Shown here: one piece after another, positions 3,073 to 8,341 of the stretch
Position numbering within the stretch: the stretch's first letter is position 1
How the letters are laid out: every line of letters starts with the position of its first letter
Virus genome (UHGV): UHGV-0232198
Strand: one strand, 5' to 3'
Origin: a virus
Length of the DNA stretch: 15,661 nt
Translations under genes and position numbers: made by a program
Notes under the pieces: generated by a model
Database searches by the model: none
What the model was told of the DNA's origin: nothing
The model's input: the letters and a program-made list of their open reading frames with translations, nothing else

Positions 3073-3239
3073 TTGACCCAAATCGAAGTTACGAACAAGA
3101 AAGCGTCGAGCGAGCTTTAACGTGCGCTAACTGCGGTCAGAAGCTGCATGTGCTGGAAGTTCACGTGTGCTCAGATTGCTGCGCAGAACTGATGAGCGAT
3201 CCGAATAGCTCAATGTACGAGGAAGAAGGCGATGAGTGA
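3069..3239 (+). CDS. ninF: NinF-like small Cys-rich protein (56 aa from GTG 3069; alternative ATG at 3045)
   Basis: C-terminal sequence [48 protein letters not shown] matches my recollection of lambda NinF; RBS GAGGA at 3057-3061; this is the last third of the 153-aa track ORF 2778-3239. Confidence 0.6.
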   Translation: MIDPNRSYEQESVERALTCANCGQKLHVLEVHVCSDCCAELMSDPNSSMYEEEGDE

Positions 3240-3450
3240 TTCGTTTAGTAGCTCTGATTATTTGTATTTGGTTTTAGTACCTGTGGCAGAAGTATTCCGC
3301 TCTCGATTTCCTGAAGGCTCAGCACCATTTAATGCCATTAGCACTTACTCAAAATGCAGAGTGAAATTTACAGGTAAGCGGCTGGAAAGAGAGTGGCAGC
3401 AATTCTGCAAAAAACATGACCTAAAAAATGACCCTGAACTGGAGTATTAA
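3232..3450 (+). CDS. hypothetical protein (72 aa) in the nin region
   Basis: ATG overlaps the end of ninF; its stop is immediately followed by the next start (TAAATG); purine-rich RBS GAGGAAGAAGG upstream. Confidence 0.4.
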   Translation: MSDSFSSSDYLYLVLVPVAEVFRSRFPEGSAPFNAISTYSKCRVKFTGKRLEREWQQFCKKHDLKNDPELEY

Positions 3451-4100: not shown

Positions 4101-4285
4101 ACGCCACAATTCAAACGATACCAGAGCTTCTTATCCAGACACGAGGCAATCAGACCGAAGTGGCGAGGATGCTTTCCTGCGCAAGAGGAACAGTGCTCAA
4201 GTACAACCGAGACAGCAAAGGCGAACGTCACGTAATAGTTAACGGCGTCCTGATGGTCAAACAGGGCAAGAGAGGAAGACGATGA
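4097..4285 (+). CDS. ninH: NinH-like small DNA-binding protein
   Basis: 62 aa; core GNQTEVARMLSCARGTVLKY matches the lambda NinH core (GNQTEVARRLKCSRGTVRKY) as I recall it; ATGA overlaps on both sides. Confidence 0.8.
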   Translation: MNATIQTIPELLIQTRGNQTEVARMLSCARGTVLKYNRDSKGERHVIVNGVLMVKQGKRGRR

Positions 4286-4905
4286 GACTCGAAAGCGTAG
4301 CTAAATTTCATTCGCCAAAAAGCCCGATGATGAGCGACTCACCACGGGCTACGGCTTCTGACTCTCTTTCCGGTACTGATGTGATGGCTGCTATGGGGAT
4401 GGCGCAATCACAAGCCGGATTCGGAATGGCTGCATTCTGCGGTAAGCATGAACTCAGCCAGAACGACAAACAAAAGGCTATCAACTATCTGATGCAATAT
4501 GCACACAAGGTATCGGGGAAATACCGTGGTGTGGCAAAGCTTGAAGGAAATACTAAGGCAAAGGTACTGCAAGTGCTCGCAACATTCGCTTATGCGGATT
4601 ATTGCCGTAGTGCCGCGACGCCGGGGGCAAGATGCAGAGATTGCCACGGTACAGGTCGTGCGGTTGATATAGCCAAAACAGAGCAGTGGGGGAGAGTTGT
4701 CGAGAAAGAATGCGGAAGATGCAAAGGTGTCGGCTATTCAAGAATGCCAGCAAGCGCCGCATATCGCGCTGTGACGATGCTAATCCCAAACCTTACTCAA
4801 CCAACCTGGTCACGCACTGTTAAGCCCCTGTATGACGCTCTGGTGGTGCAATGCCACAAAGAAGAGTCAATCGCAGACAACATTTTGAATGCGGTCACAC
4901 GTTAG
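4282..4905 (+). CDS. Q: Late-gene antiterminator Q (lambda type)
   Basis: 207 aa; near-identical to my recollection of lambda Q, including the Cys4 zinc motif CRDCHGTGRAV...CGRCKGVGYS; followed by a PR'-like promoter. Confidence 0.9.
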   Translation: MRLESVAKFHSPKSPMMSDSPRATASDSLSGTDVMAAMGMAQSQAGFGMAAFCGKHELSQNDKQKAINYLMQYAHKVSGKYRGVAKLEGNTKAKVLQVLATFAYADYCRSAATPGARCRDCHGTGRAVDIAKTEQWGRVVEKECGRCKGVGYSRMPASAAYRAVTMLIPNLTQPTWSRTVKPLYDALVVQCHKEESIADNILNAVTR

Positions 4906-4947
4906 CGGCATGATTGCCACGGATGGCAACATCTTTACGGCATAATA

Positions 4948-4985
4948 TTGACTTATTGAATAAAATTGGGTAAATTTGACTCAAC
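4948..4985 (+). promoter_or_regulatory. PR' late promoter with overlapping qut (Q-utilisation) region
   Basis: TTGACT (4948-4953), 17-bp spacer, TAAATT (4971-4976); the string TTGACTTATTGAATAAAATTGGGTAAATTTGACTCAACGATGG matches lambda PR'/qut as I recall it. Confidence 0.65.
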
Positions 4986-5010
4986 GATGGATAAATGCAC
5001 TCGTTAAATA

Positions 5011-5047
5011 AAGCCCTGAGTTAATAGCTCGGGGCTTTTTGCGTTTT
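5011..5047 (+). terminator. Rho-independent terminator downstream of PR' (tR'-like)
   Basis: AAGCCCTGAG (5011-5020), loop TTAATAG, CTCGGGGCTT (5028-5037) with one G-U wobble, followed by TTTTTGCGTTTT. Confidence 0.6.
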
Positions 5048-5228
5048 AAGCACGACCTTTCTGAAAGCACATCAAACCAAATACCAGACAGACAAAAATA
5101 ATCACCTTATCCGCTGTGGCTACGGTGCGGTGTGCTTTGCATAAAAGAAAACCAGCGCAATGGCTGGCTTCGTGAAAGCGGGTGGCAAGAGGTTGTTGTC
5201 GATTAAAAATAAATACAAGGAGTAGCTT

Positions 5229-5750
5229 ATGCTAAGCGAAACAGCGAAAGATATCGCAGGATATGAAGGTAAATACTCCGTAACTACTGATGGCCGCGTT
5301 TATTCTCATTCGAGAGTTGATTCTCGTGGAAGGTTACAGAAGGGCAGATGGCTTAAGCCTGTTAATCATAGTGATGGTTACTTGTATGTAAATCTCCGCG
5401 ACAAAGGAGCACTTAAAAAACATTACATTCACAGGTTAGTGGCGGCTGCATTCATTGATAATCCAAACTCGCTTCCGCAGGTAAACCACATAAATGGAAT
5501 CAAGTCTGACAACAGAGTAGATAATCTTGAGTGGGTTACTGGCTGCCAGAATATGGTCCATGCAAGCAAGTCAGGATTGCTAAACCCAATCAGTGGTGAG
5601 CGCCACTATTGTGCAAAACTCACTACTGAGCAAGTGAAAGAAATACGTGCGTGCAAATCAATGTCGCAGCGTGAAATGGCGAGAATGTACGGCGTATCAA
5701 AAGCAACAATTGCAGGAATTCTTAACTATAAGACATGGGTTATTTATTAA
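5229..5750 (+). CDS. HNH homing endonuclease (NUMOD4-like N-terminus, HNH core, C-terminal helix-turn-helix)
   Basis: 173 aa; GYEGKYSVTTDGRVYS (NUMOD4-like), HINGIKSDNRVDNLEWVT (HNH H-N-G...N...N-L core), C-terminal TTEQVKEIRACKSMSQREMARMYGVSKATIAGILNYKTW (HTH-like); strong RBS AAGGAG at 5217-5222; AT-rich relative to neighbours. Confidence 0.85.
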   Translation: MLSETAKDIAGYEGKYSVTTDGRVYSHSRVDSRGRLQKGRWLKPVNHSDGYLYVNLRDKGALKKHYIHRLVAAAFIDNPNSLPQVNHINGIKSDNRVDNLEWVTGCQNMVHASKSGLLNPISGERHYCAKLTTEQVKEIRACKSMSQREMARMYGVSKATIAGILNYKTWVIY

Positions 5751-5977
5751 CTAATTAATTAAGAGCTCCCATTACAGGATGCATTTATGAGTGCATCCAT
5801 TAATGGTCGTTAAATGCGATTGATATGGATACTGCGCAAACAGTATCCCTAATGGTCTCCTCGCGACAACTGTGACGAGCAAACAGCGTTACCGCAAAAT
5901 GTAGCCTGGATTTGTTCTATCAGTAATCGACCTTATTCCTAATTAAATAGAGCAAATCCCCTTATTGGGGGTAAGAC

Positions 5978-6301
5978 ATGAAGATGCCAGAAAAACATGA
6001 CCTGTTAGCCGCCATTCTCGCGGCAAAGGAACAAGGCATCGGGGCAATCCTTGCGTTTGCAATGGCGTACCTTCGCGGCAGATATAATGGCGGTGCGTTT
6101 ACAAAAACAGTAATCGACGCAACGATGTGCGCCATTATCGCCTGGTTCATTCGTGACCTTCTCGACTTCGCAGGGCTAAGTAGCAATCTCGCTTATATAA
6201 CGAGCGTGTTCATCGGCTACATCGGTACTGACTCGATTGGTTCGCTTATCAAACGCTTCGCTGCTAAAAAAGCCGGAGTAGAAGATGGTGGAAATCAATA
6301 A
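5978..6301 (+). CDS. S: Class I holin S (lambda type; dual-start S107/S105)
   Basis: 107 aa; [45 protein letters not shown]... is essentially lambda S; three hydrophobic segments; Met1-Lys2-Met3 dual start. Confidence 0.95.
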
Positions 6302-6761
6302 TCAACGTAAGGCGTTCCTCGATATGCTGGCGTGGTCAGAGGGAACTGATAATGGACGTCAGAAAACCAGAAATCATGGTTATGACGTCATTGTTGGCGG
6401 AGAGCTATTCACTGATTACTCCGATCACCCTCGCAAACTTGTCACGCTAAACCCAAAGCTCAAATCAACAGCCGCCGGACGTTACCAGCTTCTTTCACGT
6501 TGGTGGGATGCCTACCGCAAGCAACTTGGCCTGAAAGACTTCTCTCCCAAAAGCCAGGACGCAGTGGCATTGCAGCAGATTAAAGAGCGTGGCGCTTTAC
6601 CGATGATTGATCGCGGTGATATTCGTCAGGCTATCGACCGTTGCAGCAATATCTGGGCTTCACTTCCGGGCGCTGGTTATGGTCAGTTCGAGCATAAGGC
6701 TGACAGCCTGATTGCAAAATTCAAAGAAGCAGGCGGAACGGTCAGAGAGATTGAGGTATGA
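6285..6761 (+). CDS. R: Endolysin R (lambda-type lytic transglycosylase)
   Basis: 158 aa; [39 protein letters not shown]... matches lambda R; start overlaps the end of S. Confidence 0.95.
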
Positions 6762-7571: not shown

Positions 7572-8114
7572 ATGAACTACCCAACCGTTGTTAACGATAT
7601 AGATTTCAGAGACCTAATTTTTGTAGCAAACAACGATCCGGTTACAGATTCTTTTATGGTGGCAAAAGCATTTGGAAAGCTGCCGAAGAACGTGGTTCGT
7701 GACATTGAACGAACCATAGAAGCTTGCCCTCCTGAGTTTGATACAAAGCTCAACTTTGAGCTTTGCTATAAAAACAATGAGTTACAGAATGGTAAGCCGC
7801 AAAAATTCTACCGTCTCCGCAAGGATGGGTTGATGCTTTTGGTTATGTCCTACACCAAAAAAGAAGCAATGCGTATCAAAATTGCTTACATCAACGCATT
7901 CAACTGGATGTACGCCATGCTTCAGGTTGGTCATCGTCAATTTGAAGAAGAGAGAAATGCCGTAATGCTGGAGTACATGAAAGAGAAGGATGTTGCCAGC
8001 ATGTCAGGCCGCCTGCTTAATCGCTGGGGAAAAATTAAGAAGCCTCAGCTACTGGCGAGAATTGAACGCCTTGAACAGCACGGGCAAACCGTAATCCCCG
8101 GACTCACCAATTAA
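7572..8114 (+). CDS. rha: Rha-family phage regulatory protein
   Basis: 180 aa; N-terminal region DLIFVANNDPVTDSFMVAKAFGKLPKNVVRDIERTIE...FYRLRKDGLMLLVMSYTKKEAMRIKIAYINAF resembles the Rha domain from memory; its position between lysis and packaging genes matches P22-like phages. Confidence 0.75.
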   Translation: MNYPTVVNDIDFRDLIFVANNDPVTDSFMVAKAFGKLPKNVVRDIERTIEACPPEFDTKLNFELCYKNNELQNGKPQKFYRLRKDGLMLLVMSYTKKEAMRIKIAYINAFNWMYAMLQVGHRQFEEERNAVMLEYMKEKDVASMSGRLLNRWGKIKKPQLLARIERLEQHGQTVIPGLTN

Positions 8115-8341
8115 CGGCAGTACAGCGAAACAACCCAAGCCAGAAAGTGGGGAAATAACACTGGCAGCCACTGAAAGATGAACCTCCTGCCTTATGGCAA
8201 AAAAGATTCTTTGTGGTGGCGGACTGATGGAAAGACATCGGTTATTGCAGAGGCCATTCAATGAGTGGTCTCGACAATGGCTTATACCCTACACGGGATA
8301 TATTAACTGATATCCCTTTTAACGGATAAACGGAGCCAACA

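Follow-up and report, generated by a model that had tools for sequence, protein, structure and literature searches.

Gene content of the Q-to-S interval

The virus genome UHGV-0232198 (15,661 nucleotides; this whole stretch is called the window below) is part of a P22-like lambdoid phage or prophage, and between its late antiterminator gene Q and its holin gene S it carries a 705-bp cassette with a gene for a predicted I-HmuI-like HNH endonuclease. A preliminary description, made from the sequence alone, had proposed an HNH homing endonuclease gene inserted in this late leader, in the position where Shiga toxin (Stx) phages carry their stx and tRNA genes. Here we followed up this proposal by computational analysis. 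The interval consists of the following features.

4282-4905, plus strand: late antiterminator gene Q of the lambda-Q type (Pfam Antiterm, 193 bits), the upstream boundary of the slot
4948-4976, plus strand: late promoter PR' (TTGACT-17-TAAATT), homologous to the PR'/qut annotated in HK140
About 4954-4975, plus strand: qut site overlapping PR', by homology to the HK140 annotation
5010-5048, plus strand: intrinsic terminator tR', stem-loop at 5010-5038 plus a T-run (terminator scan)
5184-5195, plus strand: surviving left arm of a leader hairpin, GGCAAGAGGTTG, whose loop and right arm are lost
5196-5900, plus strand: cassette of 705 bp, defined by alignment to HK140 and lambda
5196-5228, plus strand: 5' untranslated region of the cassette, with a Shine-Dalgarno sequence AAGGAG at 5217-5222
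5229-5750, plus strand: predicted I-HmuI-like HNH endonuclease gene, 173 amino acids, with NUMOD4 at residues 7-57, HNH at 65-111 and a helix-turn-helix (HTH) domain at about 133-165
5770-5880, plus strand: structured 3' element, from a consensus fold and pair counts
5874-5903, plus strand: P22-type leader tract at the right cassette edge, with 25 of 30 positions matching P22
5904-5977, plus strand: holin-proximal lambda-type leader segment with the S Shine-Dalgarno sequence and start-region stem-loop, unaffected by the insertion
5978-6301, plus strand: holin gene S (Pfam Phage_holin_3_1, 105 bits), the downstream boundary of the slot

The Q gene of the window has 96.6% nucleotide identity to lambda Q, and tR' lies at the position of the annotated 't late' in P22. 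Over the Q-to-S interval, the nearest sequenced phage is N7 (Escherichia phage, Lederbergvirus), with 98.7% identity. The leader segment just before S (5904-5977) is 100% identical to HK140 and lambda, and its homologue precedes other holin families in the relatives.

Insertion site and breakpoints

The breakpoints of the cassette were set by local alignment of the Q-to-S interval to HK140 and lambda. Homology to HK140 extends from the Q stop codon to position 5195 and resumes at 5901, which gives breakpoints at 5195/5196 and 5900/5901, and the 705 bp between them in the window stand where HK140 has 66 bp. The flanks are 97-100% identical to HK140 over more than 1 kb on each side. When compared with lambda, 5168-5193 is 96% identical to the leader and 5901-6392 is 98.6% identical, in agreement with the earlier recognition of the flanks as lambda late leader, and the limits given at that time for the element (5190-5900) were within 6 nt of the aligned ones. 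The AT-richer composition was also confirmed, as the GC content of 5196-5900 is 41.4% against 49.7% for the whole window and falls within the lowest 0.7% of 705-bp segments. By the insertion, the loop and right arm of a conserved leader hairpin are removed and the left arm (5184-5195) remains. At the empty site this hairpin is GC-rich and is located at ~1232-1262 in the lambda locus (L005), ~1781-1810 in the HK140 locus (L002) and ~1181-1210 in the P22 locus (L010). It reads GGCAGGAGGT..ACCTCCTGCC in lambda, followed by GTTTTG, and GGCAAGAG..CTCTTGCC in P22, and between these two leaders one pair is altered on both sides from G-C to A-T, which is a compensatory change. No remnants of the cassette were seen in the empty leaders of HK140, lambda and P22.

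Megablast of the Q-to-S interval gave 175 phage records, only two of which cover at least 80% of it, and most relatives, including the HK140, HK544, mEp and Sf101 phages, match only both ends of the interval. Of 5426 complete E. coli genomes, 6 carry the cassette and 1076 the empty lambda-type junction, which was detected with a 192-bp probe. The site is also empty in lambda, P22 and HK phages. In the Salmonella phage ST-35, a cassette with ~78% identity lies in a leader that is 97% identical to P22, and its breakpoints against P22 are homologous to those of the window. Based on these comparisons, the cassette in E. coli can be regarded as inserted (strictly, substituted) and not as a fixed part of the leader. 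Thus, the proposal of a cassette replacing part of the leader held well, many relatives having an empty site, and the alternative named with it, a conserved ancestral part of the leader, does not agree with the counts in E. coli, where 6 genomes are filled and 1076 are empty.

Of the 30 positions at the right cassette edge (5874-5903), 25 match the P22-type leader and 17 the lambda/HK140 type, and the next 74 nt up to the S start are of the lambda type at 74 of 74 positions. The cassette probably entered a lambda-type leader together with a P22-type flank of about 30 nt, which may be a co-converted flank of the donor. Such a tract is what co-conversion during homing would leave, and it is equally consistent with ordinary recombination within GTA/GCCTGGATTTGTTC.

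The encoded endonuclease

The open reading frame (ORF) at 5229-5750 is intact and has the Shine-Dalgarno sequence AAGGAG with a 6-nt spacer to its ATG, which corresponds to the strong ribosome-binding site of its own that had been described. The ribosome-binding site and start, AAGGAGTAGCTyATG, are common to all alleles. Using Pfam, the protein was matched above the cut-offs by NUMOD4 (44.7 bits, cut-off 23.4, residues 7-57) and HNH_3 (34.8 bits, cut-off 24.8, residues 65-109), and HTH_3 scored 21.5 bits at residues 137-169, slightly under its cut-off of 23. In PHROGs the protein belongs to phrog_59 'HNH endonuclease' (E = 7e-58), and with PADLOC it was matched by generic 'HEase' models only, with no defined system. 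The AlphaFold model from 64 homologues has a predicted local distance difference test (pLDDT) value of 92.1, with strands at residues 6-8, 16-19, 24-26, 52-58 and 61-66 forming the N-terminal NUMOD4 beta-sheet module and with a C-terminal three-helix domain at residues 133-165. The sole significant sequence match in PDB is I-HmuI (1U3E; E = 6.6e-11), and a Foldseek search with the model also matched only I-HmuI, over the full length (E = 3e-8, template modelling score 0.56). The NUMOD4-HNH-HTH order read earlier from the sequence is therefore borne out by the profiles and the I-HmuI fold match, with the HTH part seen as a profile just under the cut-off and as three helices in the model.

The catalytic residues of I-HmuI are D74, H75 and N96 (PMC12724721), and these align with N86, H87 and N108 of the window protein. 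These three residues, as well as H68, N99 and H111, are invariant in the 64-sequence alignment. Alignment and model place the protein firmly in the I-HmuI-like NUMOD4/HNH_3/HTH family, with the Asp metal ligand replaced by Asn. I-HmuI nicks DNA (PMC9410903), and by analogy the window protein would be expected to do the same. Public records already annotate the gene as an HNH or NUMOD4 protein, and our literature searches by topic and accession found no studies of it.

Transcription and position in the late operon

In the region 4800-6100, PR' (4948-4976) is the only plus-strand promoter-like site in the promoter scan, and the tR' stem-loop (5010-5038) is the only plus-strand terminator in the terminator scan. 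Within 5048-5977, these scans found no plus-strand promoter or terminator. A minus-strand promoter-like site at 5392-5365, inside the ORF, was rejected as it is within chance expectation and its codons are not conserved in other alleles. In the lambda model, the late genes are transcribed after Q antitermination of PR'. By analogy, we infer that polymerase has to be modified by Q to pass tR' and reach the endonuclease gene, which would then be the first of the late genes to be transcribed. In the lysogen the gene should be silent, because it lies downstream of tR' without a promoter of its own.

The Q-to-S slot holds other cargo in other phages. In 933W, tRNA genes and stx2AB lie in the same position, in agreement with the preliminary description, and in phage Louie two reverse-strand genes occupy the slot. 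The position of the 'moron slot' named in that description is that of the 933W cargo, but the own promoter and terminator of a strict moron were not found. A tRNA scan of the whole window found no tRNA genes, and a covariance-model scan of 4800-6100 with Rfam 15, at E values up to 1, gave no match. Since no tRNA or known RNA was found, the cassette is without such cargo as Stx phages have in this slot.

Distribution and selection

Searching IMG/VR with the protein gave 34 loci, and further loci were fetched via protein homologues. In IMG/VR, the alleles of 63-99% identity are all located ~227-230 bp upstream of the holin start, and across all loci the alleles of 62-100% identity are always ~227-284 bp upstream of a holin. 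The distance from the cassette to Q is variable (282-955 bp in the IMG/VR loci). Salmonella, Citrobacter and Lelliottia phages have diverged alleles (62-96% amino acid identity) at the same place before the holin gene, and a scan of GTDB species representatives with the protein gave 0 confirmed matches. The adjoining genes are diverse: the Q proteins span three Pfam families (PF03589, PF06530 and PF06323), and the holins are Phage_holin_3_1, Phage_holin_2_3 or a 90-amino-acid type with only a faint Phage_holin_2_3 match. For example, nine loci with nucleotide-identical ORFs of allele group C adjoin four different Q types. The more distant relatives are found in other slots, those of 56% identity between the lysis cassette and the small terminase gene terS, those of 49% between replication gene O and a primase-helicase gene, those of 45-50% between homologues of P22 gp4 and gp10, and those of 42% in the nin region. 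Judging from this pattern, each clade is apparently tied to its own site and the pre-holin slot is filled in diverse Q and holin backgrounds, as is the case for homing genes.

The ORF has a ratio of nonsynonymous to synonymous substitution rates (dN/dS) of 0.09-0.32, which indicates purifying selection, and 28 of 30 ORF copies are intact, the other two being truncated at 100 amino acids. Synonymous divergence (dS) between allele groups A and C is above 1. The cassette is an old one that has spread widely among lambdoid phages of enterobacteria, where its several diverged alleles all occupy this one slot. The truncated copies belong to group C (L037, 2009-, and L038, 2501-) and have a premature stop; homing endonuclease genes are expected to decay in this way during their life cycle.

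Two additional observations concern related genes. First, a second NUMOD4-HNH endonuclease (42% identical) lies between ninF and a ybcO-like gene in related phages, at 7769-8278 of a prophage of E. coli WP3-W18-ESBL-08 (L006) and at 2483-2992 of phage Louie (L009), and one prophage thus holds two I-HmuI-like genes in different slots. A 72-amino-acid ORF in the window (3232-3450; phrog_3379 'endonuclease') lies in the same place and was considered as such a second gene, but it shows no similarity and was rejected. Second, at 907-2034 of locus L085, upstream of the cassette, there is a gene for a 375-amino-acid protein with HNH_3 and antiterminator-Q-type domains (DUF1133/Phage_antitermQ), which may be an HNH gene fused to, or inserted in, a Q gene.

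The structured 3' element

The preliminary description did not include the conserved structured element that follows the ORF. Consensus folding with RNAalifold gave hairpin 1 at 5770-5805 and a long irregular stem at 5806-5880 that encloses hairpin 2 (5824-5851). Across the allele groups, the ~150 nt from the stop codon to the right breakpoint have a mean column identity of 89%, and the nucleotide identity of the ORF between the same groups is lower, at 68-75%. In 12 distinct sequences, 97.5% of the cells pair in the consensus structure, and 6 pairs are changed on both sides, a number that was reached by 5 of 500 shuffles and compares with 0-1 in slid controls. Covariation is confined to the two local hairpins; the enclosing helices vary by wobble changes only and are tentative. 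The mirrored minus-strand structure pairs in 89.4% of the cells against 97.5% for the plus strand, a comparison that is biased to the plus strand, on which the structure was predicted, and single-sequence folding energies did not separate the strands, the minus strand folding at least as well. As they stand, the pair counts favour a sense-strand RNA.

The gene is always accompanied by the element, which was found only beside the pre-holin HNH clade, in 3 phage records, the same 6 E. coli genomes and the same IMG/VR contigs. Exact-pattern scans of metagenome and GTDB contigs gave 0 matches, and a pattern scan of IMG/VR gave only contigs already found via the protein. The element is absent downstream of the 56% relatives in their other slot, which suggests a link with the pre-holin context and not with the enzyme. 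We propose that it probably works as part of the sense late transcript, where it may, for instance, serve in processing or insulation before the holin start region. A bolder and rather doubtful idea is that it is a functional RNA module of the cassette. In favour of this idea are its conservation above that of the ORF, its compensatory changes, its better pairing on the sense strand, the lack of an Rfam match and its absence from related endonucleases in other slots. In one version, such a processing or insulating structure would replace the destroyed leader hairpin and keep holin expression normal, and the selfish gene would then carry its own 'repair kit' for the invaded operon.

Hairpin 2 has a 6-nt loop (5835-5840) of two forms that differ between allele groups, CGCAAA and the reverse complement TTTGCG, on an unchanged stem. 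The loop of the window was compared with those of ST-35 (L003, ~2427-2438), L018, L022 and L089. The inverted loop looks like a flip by recombination within an inverted repeat.

Origin and probable function

We have very little doubt that the cassette represents an I-HmuI-family endonuclease gene inserted in the leader. That it is active in homing or marker exclusion is a weaker claim, for which the odds are moderately favourable. As a whole, our best explanation, with a rough probability of 0.62, is that the late leader of this P22-like lambdoid phage houses a free-standing homing endonuclease cassette of the I-HmuI type that depends on Q. Among the functions offered in the preliminary description, homing or marker exclusion would be favoured, and a role in packaging is unlikely, with terS 3.3 kb away and the gene sporadic.

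Such a cassette could work as follows. Q antitermination of PR' transcription would place the cassette as the first gene of the late message. The protein, as a monomer, would bind a long asymmetric site and nick one strand in the way of I-HmuI, which is well known to nick DNA. The probable target would be the cassette-less leader segment that is replaced by the cassette, consisting of the right arm of the hairpin and ~40 nt after it (about lambda 45,040-45,100). In an empty lambdoid genome sharing the cell, by co-infection or from co-induced prophages, the nick may become a break during replication, and recombinational repair from the filled allele would copy the cassette with short flanking tracts into the empty genome.

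Several points weigh against this explanation. First, the metal ligand D74 of I-HmuI is replaced by Asn (N86), which is invariant across the clade, and our literature searches found no report of cleavage, nicking or homing by the window protein or its close relatives. Second, the difference between filled and empty sites is a replacement (705 against 66 bp) and not a clean insertion, so that the direction of the change rests on frequency, composition and family. Third, plain vertical inheritance would also fit the group-C allele, which is common, with at least 1000 contigs from Salmonella, and is tightly tied to one holin type. Fourth, lambdoid mosaic recombination in the conserved leader flanks could give the same shuffling and the P22-type tract without a nuclease. 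Finally, the strong conservation of the 3' element hints at a phage function beyond selfish spread.

Part of this evidence leads to the alternative that survives best, although we consider it unlikely, namely that a recruited nuclease is ordinary late-operon cargo moved by general lambdoid mosaic recombination only. Such a nuclease would not copy itself and would be kept for the benefit that it brings to the phage, which might be late damage to host DNA or to the genomes of competing lambdoid phages. The purifying selection and mostly intact copies are in line with this, as are the tight linkage of each allele group to particular holins, the better conservation of the 3' element than of the ORF, and the recombination substrates supplied by the conserved leader flanks. 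However, the family is of the classical homing type, truncated copies exist, and the very rare filling of the site in E. coli argues against a general benefit. The specificity of clades for slots, over at least five slots, is hard to explain without site preference.

It is also conceivable that the cassette is ancestral to the late leader and that the 'empty' leaders are deletion derivatives. The alleles are deeply diverged (groups A and C) and always in the same slot, so their residence is old, and the replacement state by itself gives no direction. We regard this as very improbable, given that the empty leaders have their own segment of ~46-66 nt, in which the hairpin of lambda differs from that of P22 by a compensatory change, that empty sites far outnumber filled ones in E. 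coli and occur in lambda, P22 and HK phages, and that the low GC content of the cassette is foreign.

Even less credible is a prophage defence or superinfection-exclusion nuclease expressed in the lysogen. The PADLOC 'HEase' profiles do match, and nicking I-HmuI-like nucleases can be anti-phage effectors, for example NixI of PLE (PMC9410903), but the matching models are generic homing endonuclease models with no defined system, and the position downstream of tR' without an own promoter leads us to expect silence in the lysogen. The poorest candidate is a packaging-associated HNH protein working with terminase like HK97 gp74: some phages are known to have HNH proteins in their packaging machinery (background cited in PMC5304195 and PMC12724721) and the 56% relatives lie directly upstream of terS, but terS of the window (9082) is located 3.3 kb downstream, past the full lysis cassette, the terminase, of the Terminase_6 type, is one that accompanies P22-like head genes, the gene is missing in P22, in HK140 and in most relatives whose packaging genes are of this kind, and its DNA-targeting NUMOD4/HTH architecture is not of the small gp74/GVE2 type. 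These last two explanations were rejected on the gene position and the lack of a promoter.

The locus provides a clean case that lends itself to testing, with a gene whose timing would be set by Q antitermination. Homing endonuclease genes are well studied in virulent phages (T4, T5, SPO1 and lactococcal phages) and hardly in temperate lambdoid phages, whose hosts commonly carry several lambdoid prophages able to be co-induced. Natural phages with a filled site (N7 or the window phage) can be paired with empty ones (HK140, lambda or P22), from which they differ at a single defined site. Should the conserved late leader be the target of the enzyme, mosaicism at the junction of Q and the lysis genes, which is also the place of the Shiga toxin genes, would have a directed driver. 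From the structured element that accompanies the gene, one could also learn how selfish inserts spare the operon that they invade.

Other features of the window

The gene order in the window is NinB, NinF, YbcO, RusA and NinH (the nin region), followed by Q, the cassette region and holin S. After the holin gene there are genes for the endolysin, Rz with an embedded Rz1-like ORF, a Rha-like protein, the small and large terminase subunits and the portal protein, and ORFs of scaffold and coat size are located after the portal gene.

Just upstream of the insertion point, a canonical terminator-like hairpin reading leftward (GAAGCCAGCCATTGCGCTGGTTTTCTTTT) lies on the minus strand at 5148-5171, and all related loci, whether filled or empty, have kept this hairpin (AAAAGAAAACCCAGC..GCTGGGCTTCGTGAA) in the late leader. 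A 21-codon mini-ORF (MAGFVKAGGKRLLSIKNKYKE) at 5160-5225 starts in the conserved leader, overlaps the Shine-Dalgarno spacer of the endonuclease gene and ends with TAG 3 nt before the endonuclease ATG. The same mini-ORF start opens a 13-codon ORF in HK140; with no evident Shine-Dalgarno sequence, the mini-ORF is probably meaningless.

Between Rz and the small terminase gene, the gene at 7572-8114 (43.5% GC) encodes a Rha-like/ORF11CD3 regulator or antirepressor. Relatives have either a KilA-N gene (L006) or the HNH endonuclease gene of 56% identity (L073-75 and L082) in its place, and the Rz-to-small-terminase interval is a second variable cargo slot of the late operon. In the nin region, the 153-amino-acid ORF at 2778-3239 matches NinF over residues 115-139 only; the real ninF is probably the short C-terminal part of this ORF, and the long GTG-started ORF is probably an artefact.

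Comparison with known systems

I-HmuI of Bacillus phage SPO1 (1U3E) is the closest characterized protein by both sequence and structure searches. It is of nearly the same length (174 against 173 amino acids), has an N-terminal beta-sheet DNA-binding region, a beta-beta-alpha-metal HNH core and a C-terminal helical/HTH domain in the same order, and its catalytic His and Asn are conserved here as H87 and N108. In contrast, identity is only ~27%, its metal ligand D74 is Asn in the window protein, and its gene lies inside a group I intron of the DNA polymerase gene, whereas the window gene is free-standing in a non-coding leader.

As cargo of the slot, the cassette can be compared with the stx and tRNA genes of 933W, which also lie downstream of Q, PR', qut and the terminator and upstream of the holin gene, with Q-dependent expression expected. 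The cargo itself is different, a host-directed toxin or tRNA in 933W and a nuclease of the selfish-element type here. Furthermore, 933W has annotated promoters and terminators in the slot, which were not found in the window cassette, and its Q and holin are of other families. The HNH proteins of the HK97 gp74/GVE2 packaging type share the HNH (His-Me finger) motif and a place in the phage late region. However, they are small, without NUMOD4 and HTH, adjoin terminase or portal genes and are fixed in their lineage, and the window gene occurs sporadically and is placed before the lysis genes.

As a mobile gene, the window gene resembles the HNH endonuclease genes of Skunavirus (PMC12724721) and F-TflI, F-TflII and F-TflIV of T5, which are intergenic, intron-less homing endonuclease genes with presence/absence polymorphism. 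Homologues in T5-like phages are ~41-43% identical to the window protein. The phylogenetic clusters of the I-HmuI-like genes of Skunavirus correspond to insertion sites (PMC12724721), and the same pairing of clade and site is seen among the relatives of the window gene. Compared with this known kind of selfish mobile gene, the gene described here is a further example and not a new kind of system. The Skunavirus and T5 genes are found in virulent phages, mostly in replication or tRNA regions, whereas the window gene belongs to a temperate lambdoid phage, would be under Q antitermination and is accompanied by a structured and conserved 3' element, which alone might be new.

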